Of a stretch of DNA of 63,966 nt, positions 7,239 through 62,754 are shown one piece after another. The notes below the pieces were generated by a model, which saw only the letters and a list, made by a program, of their open reading frames with translations, was not told the origin of the DNA and did not search any database. The DNA is from an uncultured bacterium (lineage in GTDB: Bacteria > Zixibacteria > MSB-5A5 > CAIYYT01): contig CAIVAP010000112.1 in NCBI GenBank assembly GCA_903903945.1, forward strand, positions 1 through 63,966, read 5' to 3'. Every line of letters begins with the position of its first letter. The stretch's first letter is position 1. The translations under genes were made by a program, and so were the position numbers.

Positions 7239-7250
7239 GTTGTGTTCCTT

Positions 7251-8360: not shown

Positions 8361-8611
8361 TTCGCTTCTCCGAGTTCACTGCCAAGCATTTCCATCTCGC
8401 GCAAGTATTCGAACACTTTTTGCGCTTCTTCTTCATCGATGATGTTCAACGCAAAGCCGACGTGGATGATAACATAGTCACCGAGTTTGACCTCGGGGAC
8501 ATAGCAGAGATTGACTTCTTTTATCACGCCACCAAAATCAACTTTGCCCATCCGGAAAACCGGATCGTCCCCCGCGATGCTGATAACTTTACCGGGTATG
8601 GCCAAACACAT
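8357..8611 (-). CDS. hypC: Hydrogenase maturation chaperone HypC
   Basis: 84 aa starting MCLAIPGKV, which contains the essential Cys2. Confidence 0.93.
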
Positions 8612-8616
8612 AGCTC

Positions 8617-10926: not shown

Positions 10927-10968
10927 GCCAAGATTATACGGGGTCGGGCGTCAAAGCAAGCAGACGAC

Positions 10969-12773: not shown

Positions 12774-13542
12774 GCGCGTCCCCCTCTTTCCGGAATGTGT
12801 CGGAACCGGCGTTGAAGCTGCGATAGGCGCGAATCAATTGCTCGTCGGTGACACCGGATTTATGGAACTGCTCGCTTAGCGAGATGGTATTGGCCGTCTC
12901 TTTCGGACCGAAGCAGCCGTAGCAACCGCGGTCAAACGTCGGGCAAATTGCACCGCAACCGGCATGAGTCACCGGTCCCATGCAGGGGGTTCCCTGTGCA
13001 ACCATGACACATGAAGTTCCTTTCAGCTTGCATTCCACGCAGACGCCGTATGCCGGTGTGTTCGGTTTGCGTCCGTTTAGAAAGGCGCTGAGCACTTCAA
13101 CAAGTTGCATTTTGTTGATCGGACAGCCGCGCAACTCGAAATCGACATGCACATGGTAGCCGATCGGCGTGGACTTGTGCAGCGTCTCGATGTATTGCGG
13201 GGAAGCGTAAACATAGTTGGTGTAATCCGTGACATTGGCAAAATTCCGCAACGCCTGTATGCCACCGGCCGTAGCGCAGGCGCCGATAGTGATCAGATAC
13301 TTCGACATCTTGCGCACTTTCTGGATGCGCTCGGCGTCGTGGGAGGTCGTGATCGAACCTTCCACCAGCGACAGGTCGTAGGGACCTTTGGTCAAGGCGC
13401 GAGTCGCTTCCGGGAAGTTGGCGATTTCGACAGCACCGGCAACCGCCAGCAATTCATCTTCGCAGTCCAACAGGCTTAGTTGGCAACCGTCACAGGAAGC
13501 GAATTTCCATACTGCGAGTTTCGGTTTAGTATTCGTAGGCAT
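12760..13542 (-). CDS. hyhS: NiFe hydrogenase small (delta) subunit, group-3-type
   Basis: FASCDGCQ and GACATAGG FeS motifs plus a distal Cys cluster (CVECK...CMGP...CGAICP). The track starts at TTG 13563. I prefer ATG 13542 ([14 protein letters not shown]), one nt after the upstream stop. Confidence 0.85.
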
Positions 13543-13543
13543 T

Positions 13544-14413
13544 TCAGATTTCCCGCCGTGCAAGAAGTTCGATAACCTGATCGTAAGTATAGACCGGGCC
13601 GTCTTTGCAGATGAAAGTCGGGCCGTACTGGCAATGCCCGCACAGGCCGATTCCGCATTTCATATTGCGTTCCATGGAGACGTAGATGCGGTCAAGAGTC
13701 ATTTCCTTCTTGATCAAGTCCATGGCTACGAAACGCATCATGATTTCCGGTCCGCAGATCATAGCGACGGTATTATCAGAATCGAGGACAAGTTTCTTGA
13801 GCAGAGTTGTTACGACCCCGACGTTGCCGTGCCAGTCGGAGGAAGCGCGGTCAACAGTCACCAGGACTTCCATATCGAAACGGGCGCGCCATTTCTCCAA
13901 TTCACCGCGGTAGAGCAGATCATCAGGCGTGCGCGTGCCATAGAACAGGAATACCTTGCCATATTTGCGACGCTCGGCCAGCACCTGATAAATGACCGGA
14001 CGCAACGGCGCCAGACCGATACCGCCGGCAATAATCACTACGTCGTTGCCGACGGCTTCTTGGACAGGCCAGCAGCTTCCAAACGGTCCGCGCACTCCGA
14101 TCGTGTCGCCTACTTTCAGCTTTGACATTGCTTTGGTAACACTGCCGACCGTACGAATTGTGTGAATCAGCGGATTCGGCAAGGACGGATCGCCGCTGAT
14201 TGAGATCGCGGCCTCTCCCACACCGAATTTGTATAGCATATTGAATTGGCCGGCTTTGAATCGATGTTCCCCCGTCCCACTCGCAGACTTGAGCTCCAAT
14301 GTGTAGGTGTCATGAGTCTCCTTGCGATATTTCTCCACCCGAAAGATTTCCGGCACCATCGGCCTAACAACAGCTTCTTTGGGAGCCGCCTTGGAATCAA
14401 ACACGGGTTCCAT
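13544..14413 (-). CDS. hyhG: Hydrogenase gamma subunit: FAD/NAD(P)-binding oxidoreductase with 2Fe-2S (AsrB/PyrK-like)
   Basis: Ferredoxin-reductase-type fold ([19 protein letters not shown]) and a C-terminal cluster [10 protein letters not shown]. The track starts at TTG 14470. ATG 14413 or ATG 14359 are more likely starts. Confidence 0.82.
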
Positions 14414-14858
14414 AGATGTCCAACAGTTGAAGTCTTGTCGCTGAAAGCCGCTCGACGATGATTTTGACAAACCGCTTCAGCATTTCATATCCCAAATGAT
14501 GATCTTCTTCCAGCTTTCCGCGCAGACACTTGCCATCGAACCGGATGGCGCGAGTCAAGACGACGGCCCTCGCATCAAAATGTGAACGATAGGGTGGCAA
14601 CAGCCACGACCAGCCCATTACCTCACCATCTTCCAACGTCTCCACGGTAATCGGTCCGTGCGTCGGACTAAACAACTCCAGCGCTACCTTGCCCTGACGA
14701 ATGATGAAGAATTCCGAGGCATCTTGTCCCTCGCGAGAGATGAAGTCGCCGGCATCATACTTGACGTTTGAAGCACAGCCCACGAGCAGCTTCAATAGTT
14801 CCGGCGACATACCCGTAAAGAACGGGTGCGCGGCCAGAATCGGTTCCAATGTCTCCAT
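14397..14858 (-). CDS. Stand-alone cyclic-nucleotide-binding domain protein with no DNA-binding domain
   Basis: 153 aa. The cNMP beta-roll is visible (FISREGQDASEFFIIRQGKVALE) and the phosphate-binding-cassette-like segment GEVMGWSWLLPPYRSHFDARAV retains Gly-Glu and Arg-Ser. The protein ends after the C-helix, so there is no HTH. The ATG lies 1 nt after the upstream stop, and the 3' end overlaps the next gene. Confidence 0.8.
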   Translation of the reverse strand: METLEPILAAHPFFTGMSPELLKLLVGCASNVKYDAGDFISREGQDASEFFIIRQGKVALELFSPTHGPITVETLEDGEVMGWSWLLPPYRSHFDARAVVLTRAIRFDGKCLRGKLEEDHHLGYEMLKRFVKIIVERLSATRLQLLDIYGTRV

Positions 14859-14859
14859 C

Positions 14860-16026
14860 CTAATGCTCCTTTATTGCCATGGTCGCTTTGTCGCTTTTAT
14901 CGCCTGCCCGAATAGCGCGCGCCTCCTCGGTGATGTCGATACCGACAGGGCACCAGGTAATACATCTGCCACATCCCACACACCCCGAAGTACCGAATTG
15001 ATCTTGCCAGGCGGCGAGTTTGTGAGTCATCCACTGACGATAGCGCGATTTCGGTGAATTGCGAATACTACCACCGTGAATGTATGAGAAATCAAGCGTA
15101 AAGCAAGAGTCCCAGTGCCGTGTGCGCTCGGCATTCTGACCGGTGAGATCAGTCGTATCCACGACAGTCATGCAGAAGCAGGTCGGACACACCATCGTGC
15201 AATTGGTACAGGTCAGACAGCGGCCTGCAACATTCTCCCAGCGCGCACACTCAACGTTGCGATAGAGTAACTCGTAGATTCCGGTCGTGTCCAGTTGCCG
15301 CCCCATTTTCTTGGCCGCTTTTTCCATCAAGTCCTTGGCGTCCTGTTGTTCTTCCGCAGTTGCTTGCTGTTTGGTTATCTCCGCGAGCACTTCCGCGCCC
15401 AAAACGCTACCCGACTCGGCGACGAAGTAATGACGTTGGCCGTCGATCACTTCCGTGAGCGCCAAGTCAAAACCACAGGTAGCTTTGGGACCGGTCTTCA
15501 TCGAGACGCAAAAACAGGTACCACCCGTGGTGACGCAGTTCACGGCTACGATGAATGCCTTTTCGCGCCGCGCTTTGTAGACGGGGTCTGTGTACTCGCC
15601 CTGTAAGAAAATCTTATCCTGAATCGCGATCGCATGCAACTCGCAGGAGCGCACGCCGATCAATGCGTACTTGGGAGCTTCCGCGGCTTCCGGCGCCACT
15701 ACCACTTCGCCTTTCTGCAGATTGGCTTTCCACAGGCTGAGCACCGGCGGATAGAGAAACTTCTTCCACGAGTGCGGCCCGACCACATAACCGAAGTATG
15801 CTGCGTCTTTGCGACTCGCCAATCGGTAACGGCCGGCATCCTGTTCATCGGTCCAGCCGACCGGAAGATCGGCCGTGGAATTTAGTTCATCGTAGGCAAT
15901 CGCGCCGTCGCGGATCGTCGGCCCGACAAGCTGGTAGTCCCGTTTCTGCAGAACGGTGAATAGCGTTTGTAGCTGCTCTTGTTTGAAGGTCACTTGTTGC
16001 TCAATCTCCACAACCGGTTCCAACAT
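14860..16026 (-). CDS. hyhB: Hydrogenase beta subunit: 4Fe-4S dicluster protein (AsrA/HydB-like)
   Basis: 388 aa with ferredoxin motifs CLTCTNCTMVCPTC and CVGCGRCITWCP. It is the first gene of the structural operon. Confidence 0.82.
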   Translation of the reverse strand: MLEPVVEIEQQVTFKQEQLQTLFTVLQKRDYQLVGPTIRDGAIAYDELNSTADLPVGWTDEQDAGRYRLASRKDAAYFGYVVGPHSWKKFLYPPVLSLWKANLQKGEVVVAPEAAEAPKYALIGVRSCELHAIAIQDKIFLQGEYTDPVYKARREKAFIVAVNCVTTGGTCFCVSMKTGPKATCGFDLALTEVIDGQRHYFVAESGSVLGAEVLAEITKQQATAEEQQDAKDLMEKAAKKMGRQLDTTGIYELLYRNVECARWENVAGRCLTCTNCTMVCPTCFCMTVVDTTDLTGQNAERTRHWDSCFTLDFSYIHGGSIRNSPKSRYRQWMTHKLAAWQDQFGTSGCVGCGRCITWCPVGIDITEEARAIRAGDKSDKATMAIKEH

Positions 16027-16413: not shown

Positions 16414-17916
16414 CTATGGTTGCACACCTTGATGGCATTCGTAGCAGCCGGTTTCCTTCCAAGCATTGTCGATGTCAATCGGGTGCTTGAATTCAAGCCC
16501 TGTGCCCGAAGAATCCCGCTCAACCGAGTTGTCGGCGCCTTGCATCATGATCGTGTGGCAAGCTTTGCAGTCATGACTGATTTTGACGCCCGCCGCAGTC
16601 TGATGTGCCCCGTCGTGGCAGCGCATGCAGCCTCTGTCGTTGAAGTGTCCAATGTTATTGGGATAGGCCGACCAGCGAGCTTTCATGTGCGGGAAGATGT
16701 TCTGCGCAAATGCCTGCTGAGCACCAGCAATCGACCCGGTGATCTTGTCGGGCGCGGTCGTCTGATCGCCGGACTGATAGTGACTCGTGATAGCTTCGGC
16801 AATGCCGGCGGAGGCAGAGTCTTTCGTACCATATTCCAGCGTGAGTGCTTCGACCGCTACTTTTTTGATAGAAGGCAGCGACGGGTCAATCATACCACCT
16901 TCGATAACTCGATCGACAGCGTAATCGGGCGAATGATAGACATGGCTAGGGCGGTTGTGGCAATCGATACAATCCATTTTCCTTATTTCGCTGGAAGCAA
17001 ACGTCTGCTCATCAAGCGGTTGCGCATTGTCCTGATAGACCGTCTGCTTGCCGGTTTTCCTGTCCGTCACCCGCACCCAGGGGATATCCTGGCGTCGTTC
17101 GTCACGGGAGATGTATTCAATCTTGATGTCTTTGTTGATATGCCAGTGAATGCCGGCTCGCTGTCCCAGACCCGGCTCGCCGGTATCGGTCTTGAGAAGA
17201 ATCATCGCCGACCAGCGAGTGTTGGCATCATCGTACATGTAATGGGTAAACTTTCGCAATCCGGTGCCGTAGGTTTTCTCCGGCCAATGGCACTGTTCAC
17301 AGGTTTCGCGCGCCGGACGAAGATTGTGAATCGGTGTGGGGATAGGTCGCGGATACTTGTTGAACAGCGCAGCGTAGACCTGATAAGATCCGGACAGCTT
17401 CGATTTGGCATACCAGCCCGCGCCATATCCGACGTGGCACTCCGTGCAGGCCACTCGCGCGTGTGGCGACTGCAAATAGGCCGTGTGCTCCGGCTCCATA
17501 ATCTTGTGGCAGGTTGTGCCGCAGAACGTGACCGATTCGGTGAAATGATAGGCCTGATAGCTGCCGACCGCGCTTAAGGTCACGAAAAGTACCGTACCCA
17601 GCACGAAGACGATTGTGGCGTTGCGGTGATGGCTGTTGTTGAGATCGATATGGGGCCATTTGCGCTCCGAGACACTCTCGCCTCGCTGCCAGAGACGCCA
17701 CCGGCGGTACATACCGACCGGGATCAAAAGCAGTCCCAGCACCAACAGCGCCGGCAAGACCATGTATAGGAAAATGCCGAAATAGGCGTTGGTCTGTTCC
17801 ATGCTGACGTTGATGAGCAGCATGATCAGGCCGATCATTCCCATGACGACTGCCAGGACCACGCCGGCTATGCTGAAAGAATTATAAGCTAAACGCGGGA
17901 ATTTGGGTTGCTCCAT
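16414..17916 (-). CDS. Membrane-anchored multihaem c-type cytochrome (NapC/NirT/NrfH-like); candidate quinol dehydrogenase
   Basis: Three predicted TM helices are followed by CGTTCH (Cx3CH) and six CxxCH motifs (CTECH, CEQCH, CIDCH, CMRCH, CKACH, CYECH). The track starts at TTG 17982. I prefer ATG 17916 (MEQPKFPRL), which has a purine-rich stretch upstream. Confidence 0.8.
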   Translation of the reverse strand: MEQPKFPRLAYNSFSIAGVVLAVVMGMIGLIMLLINVSMEQTNAYFGIFLYMVLPALLVLGLLLIPVGMYRRWRLWQRGESVSERKWPHIDLNNSHHRNATIVFVLGTVLFVTLSAVGSYQAYHFTESVTFCGTTCHKIMEPEHTAYLQSPHARVACTECHVGYGAGWYAKSKLSGSYQVYAALFNKYPRPIPTPIHNLRPARETCEQCHWPEKTYGTGLRKFTHYMYDDANTRWSAMILLKTDTGEPGLGQRAGIHWHINKDIKIEYISRDERRQDIPWVRVTDRKTGKQTVYQDNAQPLDEQTFASSEIRKMDCIDCHNRPSHVYHSPDYAVDRVIEGGMIDPSLPSIKKVAVEALTLEYGTKDSASAGIAEAITSHYQSGDQTTAPDKITGSIAGAQQAFAQNIFPHMKARWSAYPNNIGHFNDRGCMRCHDGAHQTAAGVKISHDCKACHTIMMQGADNSVERDSSGTGLEFKHPIDIDNAWKETGCYECHQGVQP

Positions 17917-17992
17917 GGCTTCTCTCGTATCTGGATTAGTTGTTACCGCTACCGAAACTTTTTCGTCGGGCAGAGCATACAATTCGCGCCGA

Positions 17993-21367: not shown

Positions 21368-23431
21368 CTAACACTCCGCACAGGGCGCTGCACCGCCGCT
21401 AAAGATGTAGGCGATCAGATACACGGCGTCCGAGATATTAACCGTACCACTGCAATTGGCGTCACCAGAGAGTAATGGCGATGGCGCCGGACCGCCGGAG
21501 AAAATGAACGCGATAAGGTAAACGGCATCAGAGATGTTTACCGTGCCACTTCCGTTAGCGTCGCCACAAACATAGGGCGGGGCTGGCGGGTCTGTGACGG
21601 TTAGAGCCAGCGCGGCTGTGTCGACCTTGGCCGGAATACTACCGTCACGCAGGGCGACCGTGAAATAGAAAGTTGCTTTCCAGGTCGGCGTGCCGGAAAT
21701 CGTGCCGCCGTCGAAATTCAGCCCGTAAGGCAACTCGCCTGATACCTTCGACCACGTATAGGGACCCACGCCACCAGCACTCTGAAGTGTCAGGTTGTAG
21801 TTTTGGAGGTAGTAGGCGTTGGGGAGGATCGGACCCGGATGAATATGCACACTGTCGTCGCACCAGTCACCGACTCCGTCGCTATTGGAATCCCATTGAT
21901 CATTATTGTTTACCAACGGGCAGTTGTCGCAGGCGTCACCAAGACTATCGGTGTCGCTGTTGGTTTGTGATAGGTTGGCAACATACTTGCAGTTGTCGTC
22001 GGCGTTCAAAATGCCGTCATTGTCGGCGTCGGGATCGCAGGCGTCGCCCAAGCTATCTCCATCGGCGTTGTGTTGGTCGTGATTAGGGACTGTCAGGCAG
22101 TTGTCGCAGGCATCACCGACGCTATCCTTATCGGAATCAAGTTGATCCGGATTGACAACCCGGGGACAGTTGTCAATAAGATTGGCGACTCCGTCATCGT
22201 CCCAATCGAGATTCGGATAATCCCATCCGATTGCATCGAACATAGCTATGTCAGGAGTACGGTAAAAATCCGGGTAAAAGGTCTCGCCATCTCCCATTTC
22301 TGGTTGCATAATGCCGTTCACGGAACCCTGACGGAAATGCGAGGATTGATTGGGAGTCCCATCCGACATACGATATTCGACATCAGCTCCTGCGCTGGTG
22401 AAAAGATTCGAGTTATGATCATCATCGGGATTATTGTAATCAACAAGCCGTGGCCGAAGTTGGAATTCTGAAACATTGTCAGGGTTATAATCCCCCGACC
22501 CATCCGTGCGTTGAAACCTGTAAATGTCGAGGGAAGTGATATCGGAATTTGGCTGATACCAGCTTTCTGCACGTGAAACAAACCCGAGGGCATGACCAAT
22601 TTCATGGAGTACAACCGACTGGAAGCACATCATGCTACCGGGAACACCGTCAGCCGGATCATAATCCCATGGGAAGTTTGTGCTAAACGTGATACTAGCG
22701 CAGGTACCACTAATGCTACCGATAGCGGCACCGTAGTTTGCCACGGAGAAGTAACAGCGATCCTCGTTGGTGACCGTAGAGCTTGAACCATCATACCGCA
22801 CGGGAATCGTACTCCCCGAAGGAAGATAGGTTTGAATGTAATCGTCAGAATCCATACCTGCAATAAGACTTGCGCGAGTAGTAGCCCACGAAGGTGGCGT
22901 GGCTGTATAATAGACTGACGTCGCACCAAGAATCCCGGGGCCAAGAGAGTCAAATTTAATGCTTATGTTAGCAGTTAGTGCATCGGTAAAGAGATCCTCC
23001 AGATATGTTGCCGCTGTTTCCAATGCGGTTATGGCTTCAGCCGGGACTGAGGCGTCATAGTTGAAAACCAAGTTAAAGTTGGAAAGCGCCTTTTGACTGG
23101 CGACTTTCTTATTCTTGTCATTTGCAAAACGTTCATTCGAAATTCGCACCTGTTCCTTGAAAAATTCAGCATTAGCTACAGAGGTGTCGCTTCCGGAAAA
23201 CGGTACCGTGATTATCTCGGTCTTCATCTCACTGAGACTATGATCATTGTAATTCTTGGTCGTAAACGTCGGACCGGCTTCAATAAGAACAAAGGAGTTA
23301 TCGGTAGCTGCCAACGGCGTCCGGTTCATCTTCTGAAAGGCAGAGGATGAATCGGGATTCGTCGCTGCCATCAGGGTAGAAAACATCAGCAACGAAATGA
23401 CTATCACGAACAAAGCTTTTCTGCAAAGCAT
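21368..23431 (-). CDS. Secreted HExxH zinc metalloprotease with thrombospondin type-3 repeats and a C-terminal twin dockerin-like module
   Basis: 687 aa with a signal peptide and the motif VLHEIGHALGF. Five or so Ca-binding TSP3-like repeats are present (DNCPRVVNPDQLDSDKDSVGDACDNC...). The C-terminal 66 aa form a dockerin-like module (21371-21568). AGGAGG lies upstream of the ATG. Confidence 0.8.
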   Translation of the reverse strand: MLCRKALFVIVISLLMFSTLMAATNPDSSSAFQKMNRTPLAATDNSFVLIEAGPTFTTKNYNDHSLSEMKTEIITVPFSGSDTSVANAEFFKEQVRISNERFANDKNKKVASQKALSNFNLVFNYDASVPAEAITALETAATYLEDLFTDALTANISIKFDSLGPGILGATSVYYTATPPSWATTRASLIAGMDSDDYIQTYLPSGSTIPVRYDGSSSTVTNEDRCYFSVANYGAAIGSISGTCASITFSTNFPWDYDPADGVPGSMMCFQSVVLHEIGHALGFVSRAESWYQPNSDITSLDIYRFQRTDGSGDYNPDNVSEFQLRPRLVDYNNPDDDHNSNLFTSAGADVEYRMSDGTPNQSSHFRQGSVNGIMQPEMGDGETFYPDFYRTPDIAMFDAIGWDYPNLDWDDDGVANLIDNCPRVVNPDQLDSDKDSVGDACDNCLTVPNHDQHNADGDSLGDACDPDADNDGILNADDNCKYVANLSQTNSDTDSLGDACDNCPLVNNNDQWDSNSDGVGDWCDDSVHIHPGPILPNAYYLQNYNLTLQSAGGVGPYTWSKVSGELPYGLNFDGGTISGTPTWKATFYFTVALRDGSIPAKVDTAALALTVTDPPAPPYVCGDANGSGTVNISDAVYLIAFIFSGGPAPSPLLSGDANCSGTVNISDAVYLIAYIFSGGAAPCAEC

Positions 23432-23484
23432 GCCAGCCTCCTAAAGATGCACGGGTAAGACGATGGGTTGTATAATCATAGACT

Positions 23485-23513
23485 AAGTTAGTTCCATTGC
23501 GTCAGTTTGTCAA
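23485..23513 (-). promoter_or_regulatory. Sigma70-like promoter P1 (TTGACA-N17-TAACTT) for the metalloprotease gene
   Basis: The -35 is at 23513-23508 and the -10 at 23490-23485 on the minus strand, about 50 nt upstream of ATG 23431. Confidence 0.35.
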
Positions 23514-23706
23514 ATGACTTCGTATAAATTGAGTAGTGAAGAAACGGATGTCTCACAAGTAGTACCTACATGTCTTTTCCAAACGCCGCTTGAAGGTCAT
23601 CGACGGTATGACCAACTCGACCGGACAGCGATCAGTTGTAATGTCTGGCTGCGGCACGGAGAAACTAACGTCGTGTTCATGTTCGTCCTCAAGCGAGTAA
23701 CACATC

Positions 23707-23735
23707 ACTATATACTAGATCGGCCAATTTGTCAA
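23707..23735 (-). promoter_or_regulatory. Sigma70-like promoter P2 (TTGACA-N17-TATAGT), far upstream of the metalloprotease gene
   Basis: Exact -35 at 23735-23730, a 17-nt spacer, and -10 TATAGT at 23712-23707 on the minus strand. It would give a leader of about 270 nt. Confidence 0.4.
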
Positions 23736-23893
23736 GGTGTTTTGCTGTTTCACACGAGACATATACGGGCAATGATTATACGCGATAGGCTGTATCTTGT
23801 TGGCGGTCTTCAAGATGAACGCCGGACAGTCGGGAGTGTGGAAAACCTCCTCGGCTGTCATTCTGAAGGGTCGGGCGGTTGCCGGACGCCGGG

Positions 23894-24796
23894 CTACCAG
23901 ACGCGCGGAATTAGTTCGGTGTTCTTTATAACCCTGTTCTTACTGACTGGCGCGCCCGTTTCGGTAATACTGGTTTCCAGCCGCTCGCTCATTTTGGCAT
24001 ACACTATGTTCCCGTTTTTTAGCGAGACCTGAAATTCACCGGTGATCTGCGATGTTCCAAGCGCCTTGTACGAAATCGTATCTGGAGAGTACATGTCCAC
24101 ACTGTAAGGCGAGATGGCACTGGCTATCGAAATGGTGGCGCACGGCGTACCGCGATAGGACATCAATCCCGTCAATGTCAGCTTGAACGGTTTCTGATCC
24201 ACCCTTGATGTCTTGACTACGTTCTGGACTTCGTAGCAGATTGGTTTTGGCCAGGCAATGGTGGCGGTGTCGCCGATTTTACTCAGACGTCCGCCGACGG
24301 TGTAGTGCAACTGCTCCATGATCTTGGCTGGCAGAAAATCATCGATAAACTCCCACGCTTCCAAATAGGGCCATCCCGTGGTCAAAGGAATCCCGAAATC
24401 ATAGCAGTTGCCTTTTACCGAAATCTTCGAGCGATACTGGGAACGAAAATGCAGACCAGATATCGAGTCGATGAGCGAATAGCTCTCACGGTCTGACTCC
24501 TTAATATCCTTAATGGTCCCGATGATGAAAGAGTCGACGGTGATTTCATAGATCAGGCCGCTGTCGGGATTGTTCGCGACACATAGCTGCGCGTAGCCTA
24601 TACGGTTGTTTTTGACGGCTGTGGGCTTGCCGTCATCATTAAGAAAGAGCACTTCCACTTGCATCCTGTAGGCCTGAGCATCTCCGCGCTGACATCTTGG
24701 CGCCAGATTTAGAGTTTCCTGAGGCGCCCGCGGCATTACCGACTGCGCCCAGATGGATGCATTCAAGACCATAAGAATCAGAAACAATTTGCGCAT
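23894..24796 (-). CDS. Hypothetical secreted protein
   Basis: 300-aa ORF with signal peptide MRKLFLILMVLNASIWAQS. No motif recognised. Confidence 0.6.
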   Translation of the reverse strand: MRKLFLILMVLNASIWAQSVMPRAPQETLNLAPRCQRGDAQAYRMQVEVLFLNDDGKPTAVKNNRIGYAQLCVANNPDSGLIYEITVDSFIIGTIKDIKESDRESYSLIDSISGLHFRSQYRSKISVKGNCYDFGIPLTTGWPYLEAWEFIDDFLPAKIMEQLHYTVGGRLSKIGDTATIAWPKPICYEVQNVVKTSRVDQKPFKLTLTGLMSYRGTPCATISIASAISPYSVDMYSPDTISYKALGTSQITGEFQVSLKNGNIVYAKMSERLETSITETGAPVSKNRVIKNTELIPRVW

Positions 24797-52712: not shown

Positions 52713-54179
52713 ATGAAACGACCAAAGACACTGAGCGAATTGAAAGCATCCGGCTACCGGAGTCGCTCCACCAAGACAGAGCTGCGTGAGAATCTGATCG
52801 AGCAAATCAGAGCCGGCAAGAGCCGCTGGCCGGGCATTATCGGTTATGAACGCACGGTGCTGCCGCTCTTGGAGAACGCGATCCTTTCCCAGCACGACAT
52901 CCTGCTTCTGGGTCTGCGCGGACAAGCCAAAACCCGCATCCTGCGACATCTCGTCAATTTCCTGGACGAGTTTCTGCCGGTGATCAAGGGGAGTCCGCTT
53001 AATGAAGACCCTTACCGGCCGATCACTTCACGCAGCAAGCGACTGCTGGTTGAGGCCGGTGACGAGTTGCCGATTGACTGGCTGCCGCGTGAGTTGCGCT
53101 ATAGCGAGAAGCTGGCTACGCCCGATGTATCGGTGGCCGATCTGATCGGTGATCTCGACCCGATCAAAGCCGTACGCGAGAAGCTTGATCTGTCCGACGA
53201 AGAAGTCATCCACTGGGGCATCGTGCCACGCACGAATCGCGGTATCTTTGCGATCAACGAGCTTCCGGACTTGCAGCCCCGAATTCAGGTGGCGCTGCTC
53301 AATATCCTCGAGGAGAATGATTTTCAGATCAGAGGGTTCCCGATTCGGGTACCGTTGGATATGATGTTGGCATTTACCGCCAATCCCGAGGACTACACCA
53401 ATCGCGGAAACATCATTACGCCACTGAAGGATCGTATCGCGTCGCAGATCAACACGCATTATCCCAGCAGCGTCGAGATTGCCAAGGCGATCACCAAGCA
53501 GGAAGCATGGACCGACCGATCGGCTGAGATAGAGATACCGGAGTTGATCCGGGATATCATCGAGCAGATAGCATTTGAAGCCCGTTCCAGTGAGCATGTC
53601 GATCAGGGCTCCGGCGTGTCGGCACGATTGACGATCTCGGCATACGAAAATCTGCTTTCGAACATCGAGCGACGCGCGGCAGTCAACAAAGACAACGACT
53701 ACTACCCGCGCATTTGCGACTTGTATGCAGTGCTGTCGTCGATCGTCGGCAAGGTAGAATTGGTTTATGAGGGGGAACTGGAAGGCCCGTCGATCGTGGC
53801 GGTCAATTTGATTGGCGAGGCAACCAAAAAGGCCTTTGCACAATACTTCCCGGCGCCGCGCAAGCCCAAGGGCCACGCTGCCGAAAACCAGCGCCGGCAG
53901 GAAAATGTCTATGAGCCGATCATTGATTTCTTTGCTTCCGGCAGGCGATTGGAACTCTCGGACGAACTCCCCTACGGTGAATACAAGGCCGCGCTTTCGC
54001 AGATCGTGGGGCTGCGCGAGATCGCACATCGATATTTCAAACCGAAAAGCGAGCGCGAAACCTTTCTGGCAATGGAATTCGTGCTGGAAGGATTACACCG
54101 GCACAACATTATCGCCAAGGAATCGCCCGACAACAAGTTTGTCTACATCGATATGCTGGAGAACATCCTGAAGGACTAA
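52713..54179 (+). CDS. BchI/ChlI-like AAA+ ATPase of unknown function
   Basis: 488 aa. Walker-A-like LLLGLRGQAKTRIL, with Ala where Gly is expected before Lys. Walker-B-like GIFAINELPDL. It is followed 1 nt later by a VWA gene. Confidence 0.7.
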   Translation: MKRPKTLSELKASGYRSRSTKTELRENLIEQIRAGKSRWPGIIGYERTVLPLLENAILSQHDILLLGLRGQAKTRILRHLVNFLDEFLPVIKGSPLNEDPYRPITSRSKRLLVEAGDELPIDWLPRELRYSEKLATPDVSVADLIGDLDPIKAVREKLDLSDEEVIHWGIVPRTNRGIFAINELPDLQPRIQVALLNILEENDFQIRGFPIRVPLDMMLAFTANPEDYTNRGNIITPLKDRIASQINTHYPSSVEIAKAITKQEAWTDRSAEIEIPELIRDIIEQIAFEARSSEHVDQGSGVSARLTISAYENLLSNIERRAAVNKDNDYYPRICDLYAVLSSIVGKVELVYEGELEGPSIVAVNLIGEATKKAFAQYFPAPRKPKGHAAENQRRQENVYEPIIDFFASGRRLELSDELPYGEYKAALSQIVGLREIAHRYFKPKSERETFLAMEFVLEGLHRHNIIAKESPDNKFVYIDMLENILKD

Positions 54180-54180
54180 G

Positions 54181-55272
54181 ATGAGACTGTTTTACTCGCG
54201 CTGGGAAGACTCGCTGTTTCAACAGCTCAGGCAAATGCATGACTTGATGCAGATTTTCAACCACATTTTGCTGCAGGTCAATGGCGACGTCAAAACGGCT
54301 CTCAAGATCATGAATCAGCTCAAGAAAATGGGCTATTTGCCCAAGGAGACTGATCTGGATGAGTTCCGCAGGCAGCTTGAGGGCAACAAGATCATCGCGA
54401 CCGACAAGAGCGGTGTCAACCTGACCCGCAAAGGTGAGCGCGCCTTGCGACAAGACTCCTTCGACAGAGTCTTCAAGCAACTCAAGTCCTCAAGCGCGGG
54501 CAATCATGCTATCGACAAGGAGGGCGGAATCTCGGAAGAGGCTCTTCCCGAAAGGCGGAGCTACAACTTCGGCGATAACCTGCGAAACATCGATTTCACA
54601 AACTCGCTATTTAACACGATAGCACGCACCGGTTCGCTGTCGCTGGACATGACGGAGGATGATCTCGAAGTCTACGAGACTGAGCAGGTGACCAACTGCG
54701 CCACCGTGATGCTAATCGACATCTCGCATTCGATGATTCTGTATGGCGAGGACCGCATCACGCCCGCCAAACAAGTGGCGCTGGCGTTTACGGAAATGAT
54801 TCTCACTCGATTCCGCAAGGATGAGCTTGATATTGTGCTGTTCGGCGATTTCGCACAGCGCGTGCAGATCAAGGATCTGCCCTATATTGGAGTTGGGCCG
54901 TATCATACCAACACCAAGGCCGGTCTGCAAATGGCGCGGCAAATACTCCTGAAAAAGCGCAGCGCGAACAAACAGATTTTTATGATTACTGATGGTAAGC
55001 CGTCGATGATCACCCGCGGTGACGGCAGCTATTACAGGAACCCCTTCGGCCTCGATCCGATCGTTGTTAACCGCACGTTGGATGAGGCAATTATCTGCCG
55101 CAAAAAGCGAATTCCGATCACGACATTTATGATCGCTGATGATCCATATCTGAGAAGATTCGTACAGACGCTGACCGAGCTTAACCGCGGACGCGCCTAT
55201 TTTGCCTCGCCGTCAAATCTGGGCGAATATGTCTTCTGGGATTTCCTCAAGCACCGTCGCAAAGCGGCGTAA
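54181..55272 (+). CDS. von Willebrand factor A (VWA) domain protein
   Basis: 363 aa with MIDAS motif DISHS ([10 protein letters not shown]) and a downstream ITDGKPS. Confidence 0.78.
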
Positions 55273-55374
55273 GGACAATCCGTCAACTATCGACCACCGC
55301 CTTTCTGATCCTGCTCACAAAAGAACCCCCGGATCAAGCGACCCGGAGGTTAGAATTGTGCTTGGAAGAAACTG

Positions 55375-56472
55375 TCAGTCTTGTCGGCCGGCGACAAGAG
55401 CGCTCGATCCTGCAGGATGAGCTTTGAGATACACAATTGAGTTCTTGATCAGCGCGACCTCATACTTGAAATTGTGCACTCCCTCCGAACGATCATCCTC
55501 AAGTATTAGGAAGTTATAGACCGCTCCGGCTGCACCAGTGGCGACTCTCTTATTGGTGGGTAGGGATGACGCCGAGTCAAGATATCCGTCTGCAATGAGA
55601 AGAGTCTTCAACGTGTCAAGGAGTCCAAGAAATTCGGTCTGTACTCCACTAATGGTGCCGTCGCCATCATAATCGGCTTTCGCCTTGAAGTTATATGATT
55701 TGGCGGATGGATGGCAGTCACTTGCCCTGGCGCACCCTGCGGAAAGATCGCTCCCGGTCGCCTCATCGACCATGTTGAAGCTGTGCCCGCCGATCTTGTA
55801 TCCATCATGAGTAAGAGGGTTGCCCTTGTGGCAATCGATACAACCGTCGGCAAACAGGGTACGATGCGGCGAGCTCTCATAAGCGACGGTCGGGCTTGAA
55901 TACTGATAGCCATTTGTGCCCTCGAACAGATCGCCCTGCGGACCGTGGTGCGGCCCCCAGCGAGTGGAAATACTATCCGTTGGTGAGGCAATACTCGCCG
56001 CTGACATTCTGGAGTGATGACAATTGGCGCAAAGGTTGCCTGCGCCGTGGTCAAACACGGTCGCATTTAACAGAGCGAAGGGCGCTTCCGTGCGCAGGTT
56101 CAAATTACCATTCGTGTGTGGAGCGTGGCAGGTGAAACAGTGAATGGCACTGACTGTAGAGTAGGGAGCGCTCACTGCGCCGGTATTCAAGAATTCGATG
56201 AATCCCTGCTGGCTGTGGCAGCGAGTGCAATCATTGCCGCCACCGCGATTGGTATAGTCAATATTGGTGCCCGAAGCGTGTACCGAATTCTGCCATTCGC
56301 CCTGTGCTTCAAGAATTGCGCCTCCAAAGCTTTCCTCGCCGTGGCACGCAAAGCAACCTGTCAGTTGCTGGTTATCATTGCTGACCTGGTTGACAACCTT
56401 GCGTTCGCATCCCGCAATGACCGCGAGCATCGCAATCAGAGCGATAATGCTCAGGACACGTAGTACCCTCAT
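55375..56472 (-). CDS. Lipoprotein multihaem c-type cytochrome (5 CxxCH); candidate surface component of the porin-cytochrome cluster
   Basis: 365 aa with lipobox LAVIAG-C. Haem motifs are CFACH, CTRCH, CFTCH, CANCH and CIDCH. It starts 9 nt downstream of the barrel gene. Confidence 0.8.
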   Translation of the reverse strand: MRVLRVLSIIALIAMLAVIAGCERKVVNQVSNDNQQLTGCFACHGEESFGGAILEAQGEWQNSVHASGTNIDYTNRGGGNDCTRCHSQQGFIEFLNTGAVSAPYSTVSAIHCFTCHAPHTNGNLNLRTEAPFALLNATVFDHGAGNLCANCHHSRMSAASIASPTDSISTRWGPHHGPQGDLFEGTNGYQYSSPTVAYESSPHRTLFADGCIDCHKGNPLTHDGYKIGGHSFNMVDEATGSDLSAGCARASDCHPSAKSYNFKAKADYDGDGTISGVQTEFLGLLDTLKTLLIADGYLDSASSLPTNKRVATGAAGAVYNFLILEDDRSEGVHNFKYEVALIKNSIVYLKAHPAGSSALVAGRQD

Positions 56473-56481
56473 AATACCTCC

Positions 56482-58038
56482 TTAGAAAGATAGACCTTTA
56501 ATCAAATTGATTTCCACGATATTGGCGGTGTAATATTCATCCCGCACCAAAAAGTCATCGAAGTTGTGCACGTTGTAGATTGCGTCGAAGCGCATATCGT
56601 CATAGAAACGGAACGCCGCAGAGCACCTGATGTTGAAGCTTTCTACATCCAGATCGCGCTTGCTCCGGTAGTAAGTCGCGCCCGCACTCAAGGTGAGGCC
56701 GTGGTATTCCTGCGAAGTGGCGTCACCGTAAAGCAGGTGATCAGTAAACTTGAAATTCCTCGTACTGTTCTCGTAGTCGCCCTTGCCGTAGGAATAACCG
56801 GCTGTGAGGGTCGCATATTTCTTGAGCGTGACGCCACAGTCAATTGTCGCGCGATTCAGTGTGACCTTGCTGCCGATGTCATCGTTCTTGCGCACCTTGC
56901 CTTCGTACTTGAGCGCGATGTTTCCCACATTCGTGAAGCGATACTTGCCACTAAATCGGTAGCGGTTGATGTCTTCGTTGCCAACCAGGCGAACGCTCTC
57001 TTTCACATCCTCGGCGCGAGTGCCATACTCGGCGCGCAACTCGGCCTGAGGCACCGGTTTGAGCCAGCCGGAACCGTACAACGAGTTTGCATTCGTCCGT
57101 TTCCAGTACTGGTCGTTGACGTCATACTGGTAGCCGACGGTCACGCCACCATAACGATGGTTGGTGTAACCGGCATAGAAGGCGTGTACCAGATTGTCAA
57201 AGGCGGTGTAATCGCTGTCGGAGGAAGTGCGATCCAGCATTACATAGTACTTGAAAATGAAATCGGAAGGCAACGCCATCGAGGCGGCGCCCCAACCGCG
57301 ATTCGAACTGATCATAAAATCAGTTTTCTTGTACTTGGTCTCGAAGTGACGGAAACCACCTTGCAACACGATCCATTCATAACGCGGCACCGGCACAGTG
57401 GCTGCAAATCTGCCTTCAGTTCGATCCTGATCACGATTGTCATTGCGATTGTCGCGGAATTGATTGCCACGGTATTCGCCCACAACCATCATGCCGCGAT
57501 AAGTGATTCGGGCGCCACCGTTGTAGAAATACTGCTTGTAGTCGACATCAACTTTATCGCCACTCGGACTAGGACTGAACAGATCGGTTGTCGAGCCGGT
57601 GCGTCCCATGTTGGCGCCGCCGCCGAAGAGTTCGATGTACCTAACCGGATGAAACGACAGCGAAGCGCCCTCATTGTGGCGTCGCGTGGTGCTGCCGCCG
57701 TGGAAGTCATAGATGCGACGGAATTGATTATGCGATAGCTTCAGAGAAAACAGCCCCGCTTTACCAATGTCCGCGGTCAGGTTGCGGTTGTTCATGGTCA
57801 TATTCCGCAGGTTGGCGCGAAGTAACATGCCATTCTTGAAATCGTAGCGGAAATTTTCCAGCGAGAGCGAGGCGCCCTCGTAATCGTTGAAAGTGGCGCG
57901 ATTGGCCGACAAGTTACCGGTTTCATCCAAAACGATGTAACCGAGTTTGATATCGCCGTTGCCGGCAGCAGTCGCCACGGCCATCATCGGCATCCAGATC
58001 ATTGTGCCAATCAGCAGTGCTTTAGCGAACTTCATCAT
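56482..58038 (-). CDS. Outer-membrane beta-barrel protein (MtrB/PioB-like role, by context)
   Basis: About 518 aa with a signal peptide (MMKFAKALLIGTMIWMPMMAVATAAG). There are no haem motifs. Beta-strand-like alternation runs throughout, and the protein ends ...INLIKGLSF. ATG 58038 or 58035 follows GAGGAGGA; the track starts at GTG 58050. Confidence 0.72.
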   Translation of the reverse strand: MMKFAKALLIGTMIWMPMMAVATAAGNGDIKLGYIVLDETGNLSANRATFNDYEGASLSLENFRYDFKNGMLLRANLRNMTMNNRNLTADIGKAGLFSLKLSHNQFRRIYDFHGGSTTRRHNEGASLSFHPVRYIELFGGGANMGRTGSTTDLFSPSPSGDKVDVDYKQYFYNGGARITYRGMMVVGEYRGNQFRDNRNDNRDQDRTEGRFAATVPVPRYEWIVLQGGFRHFETKYKKTDFMISSNRGWGAASMALPSDFIFKYYVMLDRTSSDSDYTAFDNLVHAFYAGYTNHRYGGVTVGYQYDVNDQYWKRTNANSLYGSGWLKPVPQAELRAEYGTRAEDVKESVRLVGNEDINRYRFSGKYRFTNVGNIALKYEGKVRKNDDIGSKVTLNRATIDCGVTLKKYATLTAGYSYGKGDYENSTRNFKFTDHLLYGDATSQEYHGLTLSAGATYYRSKRDLDVESFNIRCSAAFRFYDDMRFDAIYNVHNFDDFLVRDEYYTANIVEINLIKGLSF

Positions 58039-58046
58039 GATCCTCC

Positions 58047-59006
58047 TCACCGTACCCTGTCGTGACAGCCCGACTGATAGCAGTCGGCAAAGAACTTGGT
58101 GTTCAACTGCGGGTCCAGAAACATGCGGTTGTCATCCGAGCCATGAATGTCGGTGTGGCAATTGACACAGTCGACTTTGATCCCCATGCCGGAATGCGCC
58201 GTACGATGCGCCGGCGGAATGCCGTGGCATTGAAGACAGACGCCATTGCCCGGTTGTGCCAACAGACGATCGTTCGGGGAACCGTGGGGGTCATGGCATT
58301 CGGTGCAACCGCCGCCGTTGAACGAATAGGTCTCGGTCACCGGATGCTCAAACGCATGCGGCCCCGAATATTCGCTGTGGCAATTCTGGCAGGCCCAGTC
58401 GATGCCGCGCGCCAACGTCGGATCCTTGCGGTCGTCCGGAAAATGGCAACTGGAACAGCGGATATTGTCGGTCACTAGCGGATGCGCCGACCGACTTTTG
58501 AATTGGGCGACAACATTAGTGTGACAGGTGCCACAATAATCATCCGTGTCATCCTTAACCAGCGATCTGCTCTTGTTGCCGTGCACCGTGTGACACGAAC
58601 TGCAGGTAAGTTGCGCGCGCCCGTGCGGATCGGTAGTGAGCATTGTCGCCTGATGGTCATTCAGGTGGCAGCCGCTGCAAACCTCCGCCTGTTTGGGGAG
58701 AGACAGATCAGCCGGATTGACGATGTTGTCCTTGGTAGGGTCCTCAAGATGCTTCTCCCAGTCCGGATGGCAGCCGATGCAGCCAACGGTCACTTTCGCC
58801 ATCTTGTCGTCGACCATCGTTAGCTGGTGTGTTGATCCTTTGAGATTGTCCGCCGCCTCCGGATGACACTCCAGACACGCCCCCGACTTGGAAATCATGT
58901 CATCGCGCGAGTAGGGAGGCGAAGCTTCTGCCAAAGGGATAGTTGCAATCAGGAAAAAAAGGAGCAGCAGAGTCCTTGAGACTTGTGCACTTCCTTGTTT
59001 ACTCAT
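58047..59006 (-). CDS. Periplasmic decahaem c-type cytochrome (MtrA/DmsE-like)
   Basis: 319 aa with a signal peptide. Ten CxxCH motifs (CLECH, CIGCH, CSGCH, CSSCH, CGTCH, CSSCH, CQNCH, CTECH, CLQCH, CVNCH) plus one CYQSGCH. Confidence 0.85.
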   Translation of the reverse strand: MSKQGSAQVSRTLLLLFFLIATIPLAEASPPYSRDDMISKSGACLECHPEAADNLKGSTHQLTMVDDKMAKVTVGCIGCHPDWEKHLEDPTKDNIVNPADLSLPKQAEVCSGCHLNDHQATMLTTDPHGRAQLTCSSCHTVHGNKSRSLVKDDTDDYCGTCHTNVVAQFKSRSAHPLVTDNIRCSSCHFPDDRKDPTLARGIDWACQNCHSEYSGPHAFEHPVTETYSFNGGGCTECHDPHGSPNDRLLAQPGNGVCLQCHGIPPAHRTAHSGMGIKVDCVNCHTDIHGSDDNRMFLDPQLNTKFFADCYQSGCHDRVR

Positions 59007-59085: not shown

Positions 59086-59349
59086 CCATCGAACCGCTTC
59101 TGCCAAATGGCAAAGATAGGCACTCTTGGTGTCAAGTCAACAAAAACAATTGAATAAACATCGCGTTTTACCACATTGACTCTTCAATTATCGCGTGGAT
59201 CGACAGAAACTTGAGTGGTTAGACCCATTTTTTCGACAACAGCAATTGTCCGATCTGACCCGCCGAGGCTTCATGTGAAATCCTATCGGCTTTGCGGATT
59301 TCGGAGCCGCCACTATTTCTTAGAGAGTTCTCGAAACGATGAAGAGAGA

Positions 59350-61113: not shown

Positions 61114-62754
61114 CTATTCCCGCTGCAGCAGCATCAGGGTGATGTCGTCTGAACGGGGAGCATCGCCAACAAATTGGGAGACGTCGTTGATCAGGGAGGT
61201 TGCGAAAGCATCAGGGGGTTCGGCGCGGTGGTCGACAGTGAATTTTTCGAGGCGTTCGTCGGAGTAGAAATCCTCAGTGGCATTGATTGCTTCGGGGATA
61301 CCATCAGTAAAGACCAACAAACGATCGCCGGCAGCAAGCGTGACTGTCCGAGATTCCCAACCTACACCATCAAACACGCCGATCGGCATGCCGGTGGCTT
61401 CGATATATTCGATTTTGCCGTCGTTGCGCACCAAGAGCGGCGAGTTGTGGCCGGCATTGACATACGTGAGTGTGTGATTGTTCGCGTCGAGCACCGCCAG
61501 AAAGGCGGTCGCGAAATCGCCTGAGCGGCTGGAGCCGTGCAGTTGCGCATTGACCCGCGTTGTCGCTTCGGCAACATCGAAATCGGAGTTGCCCCGCAGC
61601 ATGCGAAACGCCGACAAAATGTTGGATGCCAGCAGCGCGGCGCCCATGCCTTTGCCGGACACATCGGCCAGCAGGATCAGCACTCGGCCATCCCGCAGCA
61701 GAGCGGCGTCATAAAGATCGCCACCAACCATCTTACACTGCATTTGGAAAGCATGGAAAGCGTACCCGGGAACCACCGGCAGCACCTTGGGCATCAGTTC
61801 CTCCTGAATCTGCGAGGCGATGCGCAACTCGGATTCAAGAGCTTCTTTCTCCTGACGCTCTTTGAGCAAACCTTGGTTGATGATCTTGGCGGCAAGGATA
61901 TTGCCAAATGTGGCTGTGATTTTGAGAGACTCTTCATTAAAACGCTGCCACGGATCGGCCGTATCGGCATAGAGAATTCCCAGCACCTTTTGTTCATTGA
62001 TCAATGGCACGGCCATTGCCGAACGAATTCCGGAGACGACAATCGATTCCTGTTTGGCGAAACGTTCATCGGAGATCAGATCGGAAAAGAGTACGGCCAT
62101 TTTCTTATCTAGTACTTCTCGCATGATCGAACGCGAGATCGTAAACGAATCGGAGCCCTTTTGATCGGACAACCGATAAGTCACCAAGGTGAGGGTCTCG
62201 CTGCCTTCACGCGCCAGAAACACTGCGGCACGTTCGGCATGAACAATGTCCTGCAGCAGAGCAAGAGACTCGCTGAACATTTCATCAGCGCTCTGCGGAA
62301 GGATTAGCATTTTGGCCATGTCAGAAATCGCCTTGAAGATCCGCGGGTTGGTGTAGTCCTTCAGCGCCAACGGCTGTAGGGCTTCATCAATCGGCAGCAA
62401 GGACATTGACGTGTGACTTTCGACCCCATCGGTCACTGCAACTTTCGGTTTGGGGGGAGCCGTCTCGGCGGATGATATCATGAAACCGACGATGCCAAAC
62501 GTGATCGCATCACCGACCTTGACATCAACCGTGCCGGTGATCTTGCGATCATTAACCAGCGTGCCGTTGAGGCTGGCCAGATCGGTGAGCCGAATTTTGC
62601 CGTTTGCGGCAATATCAAGCTGCGCGTGCCGGCGCGATACCGTGGCATCATTTACCGTCAAATCGGCTGGGGGAACCCGTCCGATGACATAGGTACCGGG
62701 TTGGAGTTGCCAATCGTGGCGATTGCCGTACTGTGGACTTGATAGGCGGTACAT
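61114..62754 (-). CDS. FHA-GAF-PP2C (SpoIIE-type) serine/threonine phosphatase
   Basis: 546 aa. N-terminal FHA domain (GRVPPADLTVNDATVSRRHAQLD...NGTLVN), a central GAF-like region, and a C-terminal PP2C domain (GGDLYDA, ADVSGKGMGAALL, FTDGIPEA, DDITLMLL). Confidence 0.82.
   Translation of the reverse strand: MYRLSSPQYGNRHDWQLQPGTYVIGRVPPADLTVNDATVSRRHAQLDIAANGKIRLTDLASLNGTLVNDRKITGTVDVKVGDAITFGIVGFMISSAETAPPKPKVAVTDGVESHTSMSLLPIDEALQPLALKDYTNPRIFKAISDMAKMLILPQSADEMFSESLALLQDIVHAERAAVFLAREGSETLTLVTYRLSDQKGSDSFTISRSIMREVLDKKMAVLFSDLISDERFAKQESIVVSGIRSAMAVPLINEQKVLGILYADTADPWQRFNEESLKITATFGNILAAKIINQGLLKERQEKEALESELRIASQIQEELMPKVLPVVPGYAFHAFQMQCKMVGGDLYDAALLRDGRVLILLADVSGKGMGAALLASNILSAFRMLRGNSDFDVAEATTRVNAQLHGSSRSGDFATAFLAVLDANNHTLTYVNAGHNSPLLVRNDGKIEYIEATGMPIGVFDGVGWESRTVTLAAGDRLLVFTDGIPEAINATEDFYSDERLEKFTVDHRAEPPDAFATSLINDVSQFVGDAPRSDDITLMLLQRE

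Follow-up and report, generated by a model that had tools for sequence, protein, structure and literature searches.

The 63,966-nucleotide contig CAIVAP010000112.1 of an uncultured Zixibacteria bacterium (assembly GCA_903903945.1), hereafter called the window, carries on its minus strand a cluster of three genes, A, B, and C. This cluster probably encodes a compact MtrAB-type conduit for electrons with a surface lipoprotein cytochrome (protein C), a likely 11th haem, and a NapC/NirT-like feed from the quinone pool. Gene A (58047..59006, minus strand) encodes a secreted MtrA/DmsE-like cytochrome of 319 aa with ten CxxCH motifs and a C-terminal Cx4CH motif. Gene B (56482..58035, minus strand) encodes a protein of ∼517 aa that is predicted, from an AlphaFold2 (AF2) model and Foldseek, to be a 26-strand MtrB-like outer-membrane barrel with very short loops. 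Gene C (55375..56472, minus strand) encodes a lipoprotein multihaem cytochrome of 365 aa with five CxxCH motifs and a Cx5CH motif, an OcwA/NrfA-like C-terminal half, and a G-C-E-R-K lipopeptide. At least ten haem motifs in 319 aa, together with a gene order kept across more than 60 genomes, are far beyond chance.

A–B–C belongs with the MtrAB/MtoAB/PioAB conduits as a divergent, compact branch whose outer partner is of another type, and its core is already known in the phylum. The initial annotation, made from the letters of the window, had read the cluster as a decahaem cytochrome, a barrel, and a lipoprotein cytochrome. This logic is borne out by A as a full-length MtrA/DmsE homologue, by the MtrB-like model of B, and by the conserved three-gene unit. 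The accompanying suggestion of a separate conduit family is not upheld, as A aligns with MtrA and B is modelled with 26 strands like MtrB.

Conservation of the cluster across genomes

A scan with the barrel profile, with one genome per species, yielded 69 loci. By label, these include 28 from Zixibacteria, 26 from metagenome-assembled genomes (MAGs) of Ignavibacteria or a subgroup, two from Latescibacterota, and one each from Calditrichota, Chitinivibrionia, and GN15. The nearest of these loci is that of a Zixibacteria MAG from Lac Pavin sediment, with 93% identity for B, in keeping with a probable origin of the window in this phylum. Among the 69 loci, virtually all with enough flank have A before B, and ∼55 have a C-type lipoprotein cytochrome after B; A–B–C is a conserved unit. 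At locus L001, further cytochromes and a Rieske/cytochrome b pair come after the cluster. This PetAB/multihaem neighbourhood matches the description of Zixibacteria RBG-1 (PMC3903129), so that the RBG-1 cluster would belong to the same family.

In two relatives, a second conduit-like cluster lies just downstream of A–B–C (L036:3087-7178 and L064:2430-6330). It encodes a tail-less MtrA-like decahaem cytochrome, a secreted protein of 583 aa that has a single CxxCH and is not matched by Pfam, a 126-aa protein ending like an outer-membrane protein in ...RFSF, and a tetrahaem cytochrome.

Protein A, an MtrA homologue with an additional tail

Protein A features ten CxxCH motifs and, at residues 309 to 315, the stretch CYQSGCH, that is, C309-x4-C314-H315, which confirms the motif count of the initial annotation. 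It matches TIGR03508, the model of the MtrA/DmsE decahaem cytochromes, with E = 2e-47 over profile positions 4 to 257 of 258. The score of 161.7 bits lies under the curated NCBI cut-off of 192.2, and A is, as judged by this profile, a divergent relative outside the curated TIGR03508 subfamily; close relatives of A are named 'DmsE family' by JGI. Among solved structures, the top match is 6r2q_A, the MtrA of the MtrCAB complex (E = 6.5e-28), with 10 of 10 CxxCH motifs aligned. In the PDB sequence file, chain A of 6R2Q is mislabelled 'Cystathionine beta-synthase', and a reading based on names is misled at this point.

The difference from MtrA lies at the C-terminus. Past the aligned region, MtrA has nine residues, whereas protein A has 28 that end in Cx4CH. 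The pattern that defines the MtrA/DmsE family is exactly ten haems and an end soon after haem 10, from which protein A departs by these further residues and their motif. The tail motif is kept in 114 of 120 relatives. In 67 loci of the species-representative genomes, the tail is of the Cx4CH type in 48, the CxCH type in 14, and the CxxCH type in two, and is missing only in three paralogous MtrA-like proteins that are paired with a different, 583-aa barrel. Eleven His residues outside the motifs are invariant or nearly so, as compared with 11 motifs, and would suffice for eleven bis-His haems. The tail, Cys-X(1-4)-Cys-His, probably binds an 11th haem. Since the C-terminus and haem 10 of MtrA point to the cell exterior and touch MtrC (PMC7198977), the tail would be placed at the end where an outer partner docks. 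A literature search for an undecahaem MtrA turned up only the unrelated UetJ.

Protein B, a predicted 26-strand barrel with short loops

Protein B bears no CxxCH motif and ends in ...GLSF; with a likely length of 517 aa, it fits the haem-free protein of about 518 aa that the initial annotation described. The window sequence of B has no match in Pfam (including PF11854), NCBIfam (including TIGR03509), or the PDB sequences. Searches of the B family against the PDB by HMMER did not reach MtrB, whether the query was B alone, the relative P0016, or a profile built from 61 members or from 22 divergent relatives. Of the two sets of models that the initial annotation had named for comparison, DmsE/MtrA is thus matched full length by A, albeit under the cut-off, and MtrB/PioB is not matched by B. 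Among three B relatives scanned singly, P0106 alone lies above the PF11854 cut-off (30.6 versus 23 bits), with a short match. Matches to PF11854 were not counted as proof of membership of B, being short and not consistently colinear.

The AF2 model of B, built on 61 sequences, has a mean predicted local distance difference test (pLDDT) value of 88.8 and 26 strands as assigned by DSSP. With Foldseek, the top match of the model is MtrB (6r2q_B) with E = 1.3e-16 and a query TM-score (TMq) of 0.75, seven orders of magnitude ahead of the next match (E = 5e-9, TMq 0.49). The matches that come next are 22-strand TonB-dependent receptors and, far down, LptD, with E-values of 5e-9 or weaker and TMq values of at most 0.55. 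MtrB, MtoB, and PioB feature 26 strands each (PMC7198977; PMC10654088). In the model, loop 1-2 also contains a short helix, and strands 2 to 4 are short; both features have been described for MtrB (PMC7198977). A barrel with fewer strands than MtrB was considered and rejected, as the model has 26.

The loops of the model comprise 81 residues on the outer face (the longest with 13), and the periplasmic turns comprise 35, strand 1 being assumed to run outward from a periplasmic N-terminus. As modelled, B is an MtrB-like barrel that is short solely through its loops, with ∼130 to 180 residues fewer than MtrB. The surface loops of MtrB reach ∼45 Å and narrow the outer aperture to hold MtrA (PMC7198977). 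The short loops of B would therefore leave the outer end of the wire more exposed rather than make the pore smaller. The initial annotation was right that the barrel is shorter than MtrB; a different or smaller conduit does not follow from this, since the strands number 26 and the missing residues are loops.

A profile search of 1.84 billion representative proteins yielded 178 relatives of B, and the full-length ones among the 150 listed span 504 to 557 aa. So few relatives with such a narrow set of lengths indicate a dedicated family. None of the 150 listed matches is a canonical MtrB of ∼700 aa, and there are no bridging sequences among them. The lack of a significant match of B to the MtrB/PioB sequence models, and the generic porin models that some distant B relatives match, would fit an ordinary porin or transporter that merely stands between two cytochrome genes, with no electron conduit across the membrane. 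Such a reading is hardly credible: A and B are adjacent in more than 60 species-level genomes of several phyla with a spacing of the coupling type; barrels with 26 strands are uncommon, and no structure comes near MtrB as a match of B; and the few, similarly long relatives of B in the profile search indicate a dedicated family. Chance adjacency is effectively excluded by the synteny.

Protein C, a hexahaem-type lipoprotein

Protein C features the lipobox LAVIAG-C, five CxxCH motifs, and in addition C247-x5-C253-H254. Residues G21 and C22 are invariant in 57 relatives, and the C family, with 674 matches, has an invariant G-C lipobox followed by E-R-K. The sixth site has the form Cys-Xn-Cys-His: among 120 relatives, n is 2 in 79, 4 in 31, and 5 in five, and the window copy has n = 5. 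As judged by these motifs, C is a hexahaem-type protein with about six haems. From the initial annotation, the length of 365 aa, the lipobox, and the five CxxCH motifs hold, whereas the label pentahaem has to be given up because the sixth site is a CxxCH in 79 of the 120 relatives.

The AF2 model of C has a pLDDT of 77 and consists almost entirely of helix and coil, with just two strands of four residues. The top Foldseek match is OcwA (6i5b) with E = 1.5e-4, 20% identity, and TMq 0.46, followed by weak matches to NrfA and octahaem nitrite reductase (ONR). At the sequence level, the C-family profile matches ONR, NrfA, MccA, and OcwA with E-values of 1e-5 to 3e-3 (0.0026 for OcwA) at profile positions ∼200 to 340, a region that covers the C-terminal haem pair and helices. 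This haem pair and helical bundle of NrfA, ONR, and OcwA, with its S-x-G-x-H-N signature, is present in C. At its N-terminus, C has a four-haem stretch that shares homology with the corresponding end of A, with a probability of 96% in hhalign.

A relationship to MtrC is not apparent. The NCBIfam scan gave no match of C to TIGR03507 (MtrC/OmcA), and of the hallmarks of MtrC and OmcA, C has the lipoprotein signal but neither the ten haems in two pentahaem domains nor the two β-barrel domains. PF22113 scores 26.9 bits on C, below its cut-off of 30, and also matches MtrA-like proteins. The idea that C is half an MtrC was rejected, as this match is subthreshold and unspecific and the fold has no β-domains.

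The similarity to nitrite reductases bears on whether the conduit might feed a catalytic enzyme at the surface, after the logic of DmsEFAB, with C reducing a soluble or colloidal substrate outside the cell, such as nitrite, hydroxylamine, or sulfur oxyanions. The C-family profile does match the two-haem-plus-helices C-terminal region of octahaem nitrite reductases, NrfA, and MccA (E-values of 1e-5 to 1e-3), relatives of C are annotated in some databases as nitrite reductase c552 subunits, and related loci differ in their outer partner, a swappability also seen in the Mtr/Dms module family. The similarity is, however, limited to the non-catalytic C-terminal part, and a motif scan of the protein finds no CxxCK. 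The C family has ten conserved non-motif His residues for six haems, which fit an electron-transfer protein with bis-His ligation throughout, and C is far smaller than NrfA or ONR. A catalytic role of this kind is quite improbable.

The peptide G-C-[ED]-R-[KE] occurs 42 times in ∼700 kb of related loci, every time in the gene directly after B. It is kept across differing cytochrome bodies, which points to a putative docking or sorting function. One variant of the third gene encodes proteins of ∼705 aa with 12 to 13 haems that match C and carry the same lipopeptide (L038:7563-9695, L045:5225-7345, L046:7595-9718, and L050:5944-8055). This form may have arisen by duplication of C and would then resemble MtrC, which is laid out as two pentahaem domains. 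Another variant is an 8-haem lipoprotein, present in MAGs of Zixibacteria, Latescibacterota, and Chitinivibrionia (L028:2324-3481, L054:7744-8889, and L055:7528-8691); these proteins are not seen by BLAST with C, yet start with C-E-R-K-V. The type of the A tail and the type of the C lipopeptide match in part, which may reflect shared ancestry and was not used as evidence.

Operon layout

All three minus-strand open reading frames (ORFs) are present in the ORF list of the window, co-oriented as in the initial annotation, which had given gaps of 8 and 9 nt; the gaps amount to 8 to 11 nt and 9 nt. Counted from its first GTG, the ORF of gene B spans 56482..58050 (522 aa) and overlaps A by 4 nt. 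On the minus strand, the A/B junction reads ...CGG TGA GGAGGATC ATG ATG AA, with a GGAGG Shine–Dalgarno site just 5′ of the ATG pair; the homologues of B are 516 to 518 aa long, and in an identical metagenome contig the gene was independently called with 517 aa. Because of this site, the homologue lengths, and the independent gene call, the start of B is most likely at 58035 or 58038, giving the gap of 8 to 11 nt between A and B. The 9-nt spacer between B and C contains GGAGG.

The 343-nt gap that precedes gene A holds a sigma-70-like promoter candidate (59113..59140, minus strand; TTGACT-16-TATCTT, 9 of 12 consensus matches). It is a match to the consensus alone, and promoters of this phylum may follow another consensus. 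A hairpin resembling an intrinsic terminator (55324..55351, minus strand) lies 24 nt past the stop codon of C, with a 12-pair stem (seven G-C), a 4-nt loop, and a T-rich tail (CTTTTGTG). In the same scan, neither terminator-like nor sigma-70-like sites are enriched over shuffled sequence.

The flanking genes are unrelated to the cluster, with a MoxR-like ATPase and a vWA protein encoded on the other strand and, upstream, genes for an ABC-2 exporter and an FHA-GAF-SpoIIE phosphatase; A–B–C looks like a self-contained three-gene operon. The MoxR-like AAA ATPase and the vWA-domain protein (52713..55272, plus strand) are encoded tail-to-tail with gene C. vWA genes of the BatA/BatB type also occur in the unrelated uet electron-uptake cluster of Tenderiales, and the resemblance to the vWA gene of the window is probably a coincidence. 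The FHA-GAF-SpoIIE (PP2C) phosphatase (61114..62754, minus strand) is encoded farther upstream than the ABC-2 exporter pair before the operon and may be a regulator.

A candidate inner-membrane partner

A NapC/NirT-like membrane cytochrome of 522 aa is encoded at 16414..17982 on the minus strand. It carries six CxxCH motifs and CGTTCH and matches PF03264 with 33.7 bits (cut-off 24.1). In the window, the gene lies ∼37 kb from A–B–C beside NiFe hydrogenase genes; in 18 other genomes, orthologues with 47 to 64% identity adjoin the A–B–C cluster. From this gene association, the protein is a candidate partner of the conduit.

The NiFe hydrogenase cluster (6183..16026, minus strand) comprises genes for a large subunit (11481..12773), a small subunit (12760..13563), an FAD/NAD-binding subunit (13544..14470), and a 4Fe-4S subunit (14860..16026). 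By its make-up, the hydrogenase looks like a cytoplasmic bidirectional type, and the ORFs within 6183..11484 look, by eye from the ORF list, like hydrogenase maturation genes. Elsewhere in the window, the G+C content dips to 0.486 at 22001..24000, against ∼0.53 in the rest; the dip overlaps an ORF of 687 aa (21368..23431) with a signal-peptide-like N-terminus.

Proposed mechanism

In the proposed mechanism, A would be exported to the periplasm and thread the 26-strand barrel B in the orientation known from MtrAB, with the N-terminal haems in the periplasm and the C-terminus toward the exterior. The threading is suggested by analogy. With so few loops on the barrel, the tail at the C-terminus of A would be open to the outside, where it would pass electrons to, or accept them from, lipoprotein C. 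The latter would be held at the barrel by its lipid anchor and the conserved Cys-Glu-Arg-Lys peptide, presumably exposed at the surface. Electrons of the quinone pool would reach A via the NapC/NirT-like membrane cytochrome. The job of the system would be electron exchange with extracellular or insoluble partners, in which Fe(III)/Mn(IV) minerals would accept electrons or Fe(II) and reduced minerals would donate them. The direction of electron flow is not decidable from sequence or context, in agreement with the initial annotation, which had already held it to be unreadable from the sequence.

Several observations weigh against this mechanism. B is not reached by the MtrB/PioB sequence models, and its homology to MtrB rests on predicted structure; weak PF11854 (MtrB_PioB) matches occur in 20 of 61 B relatives and are short and not consistently colinear. 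The passage of A through B is taken over from MtrAB by analogy. The tail of A is a CxCH in 14 relatives and may serve another role; to our knowledge, CxCH is not a spacing at which c-type haem is attached. The model of C is of moderate quality, with a pLDDT below 60 in the N-terminal third, and AF2 builds it haem-free, which makes the match to OcwA (TMq 0.46) a soft one. A few relatives, for example L037, are without C altogether, and nothing in the window shows a route by which a lipoprotein would reach the outer leaflet. The neighbouring genes in the window—MoxR-like ATPase, vWA protein, and ABC-2 exporter—are uninformative on respiration.

The relatives without C and the absence of an evident lipoprotein surface-export route in the window would also be expected if A and B alone formed the full conduit, as in MtoAB or PioAB, with the end of A reacting directly with soluble Fe. 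C would then face the periplasm, with its lipid anchor either in the inner membrane or in the periplasmic leaflet of the outer one, and shuttle electrons between the inner-membrane quinol dehydrogenase and the periplasmic end of A. The order of A, B, and a third gene resembles the order mtoA–mtoB–mtoD implied by the operon name mtoABD-cymA, and the third mto gene encodes a short cytochrome that, together with CymA, passes electrons to the quinone pool (PMC10654088). For Zixibacteria, Castelle et al. preferred Fe(II) oxidation, as they found no outer cytochrome of the Shewanella or Geobacter type (PMC3903129), and MtrAB without MtrC still reduces soluble Fe(III) chelates (PMC7198977). This arrangement is nevertheless unlikely. 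The extra motif of A is located at the C-terminus, which in MtrA is the outward end (PMC7198977) and the likely place for contact with a new partner. Structurally, C is closest to a reductase of the cell surface. The lipopeptide kept across differing cytochromes after B suggests docking to AB, although this could take place on either face of the membrane.

Within the preferred reading of a conduit with a surface-exposed C, a more far-reaching version can be formulated: a so far unrecognised Mtr-type branch in which an 11-haem MtrA protrudes from a near loop-less barrel and interchangeable lipoproteins with 6, 8, or 12 to 13 haems dock via the Cys-Glu-Arg-Lys lipopeptide. This version is doubtful as a whole, and is put forward tentatively.

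Comparison with known systems

The MtrCAB complex of Shewanella (6R2Q; Edwards et al. 2020, PMC7198977) is similar in that the core of A aligns with MtrA motif for motif, B is predicted to have 26 strands with MtrB as its best structural match, and the third component is a lipoprotein multihaem cytochrome. The gene order, however, is A–B–C here and C–A–B there. Unlike in MtrCAB, the barrel is ∼130 to 180 residues shorter, with 81 outer-loop residues in place of the ∼45 Å loops of MtrB, and A ends in the additional Cys-X(1-4)-Cys-His tail. With about six haems and an all-helical, OcwA/NrfA-like build, C differs from MtrC, a decahaem cytochrome with two β-barrel domains. In addition, both A and B score under the curated cut-offs of the respective hidden Markov models.

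MtoAB of Sideroxydans and PioAB of Rhodopseudomonas share with the cluster an MtrA-like decahaem cytochrome, a 26-strand barrel (PMC10654088), and the order A then B. These Fe(II)-oxidising conduits have no MtrC-type partner, and they are the analogy that Castelle et al. drew for RBG-1 (PMC3903129). They differ from the cluster in the gene that follows the barrel, which encodes a lipoprotein multihaem cytochrome here, a small cytochrome in Mto, and a high-potential iron–sulfur protein (HiPIP) in Pio. The cluster also has a far shorter barrel and the additional motif in the tail of A.

DmsEFAB, the extracellular dimethyl sulfoxide reductase of Shewanella, likewise combines an MtrAB-type module with an outer partner other than MtrC (PMC7198977), and the best NCBIfam match of A is the DmsE-family model. 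The outer partner here is a multihaem lipoprotein and not a molybdoenzyme, with no sign of catalytic cofactor domains.

OcwA, the nonahaem terminal reductase on the cell surface of Thermincola (6I5B), resembles C in its NrfA-type C-terminal haem pair and helices. Its haems number nine, against about six in C, and its Gram-positive host lacks both outer membrane and barrel, whereas C bears a lipobox and its gene accompanies an MtrAB-type pair.

The Pcc system of Geobacter (OmaB/OmbB/OmcB) is composed of a periplasmic cytochrome, a porin, and a lipoprotein cytochrome, as is the cluster. In Pcc, the periplasmic protein has eight haems, the outer lipoprotein has 12, and the predicted porin is smaller; the system is not known to be homologous to Mtr. 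The cluster differs in an MtrA-like A with at least ten motifs and a 26-strand, MtrB-like B. Geobacter-like porin–cytochrome operons, which need not be the A–B–C cluster, have been reported in Zixibacteria by FeGenie (PMC7005843).

In the phylum itself, co-located homologues of MtrA and MtrB were found in Zixibacteria RBG-1 by Castelle et al. in 2013 (PMC3903129). The same authors described RBG-1 as being without extracellular cytochromes of the Shewanella or Geobacter type and leaned to Fe(II) oxidation (PMC3903129). Since then, mtrAB has been listed in Zixibacteria MAGs (PMC9769843), and iron-cycling genes have been described in the phylum (PMC8478452). A survey of MtrCAB from 2022 found the three-gene system in Proteobacteria, Acidobacteria, and Gemmatimonadetes only (PMC8805035). 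That A–B–C is missing there is understandable, because C is not an MtrC. The literature searched holds no description of the tail motif of A, of a loop-poor barrel, or of the C family with its lipopeptide, an absence that is no proof. The C-terminal Cys-X(1-4)-Cys-His tail of A, the near loop-less barrel, and the Gly-Cys-Glu/Asp-Arg-Lys/Glu lipopeptide on the cytochrome after B thus look undescribed.

Significance for Zixibacteria and their relatives

Sediments and aquifers hold Zixibacteria and their relatives in abundance, and these bacteria have repeatedly been called iron cyclers on matches to "mtrAB" alone. If the proposed reading is true, a definite architecture would stand behind these annotations, with an outer partner where earlier work had missed one, and Mtr-type three-component conduits would extend past the three phyla of the 2022 survey (PMC8805035). 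The tail motif of A and the lipopeptide are specific, testable handles on the connection between the wire and its outer partner. On the same reading, the smaller module of ∼320 and 517 aa with swappable outer cytochromes could also help engineered electron export. Should the more far-reaching version hold as well, the branch spread across Zixibacteria and neighbouring phyla would represent a minimal, modular alternative to MtrCAB.

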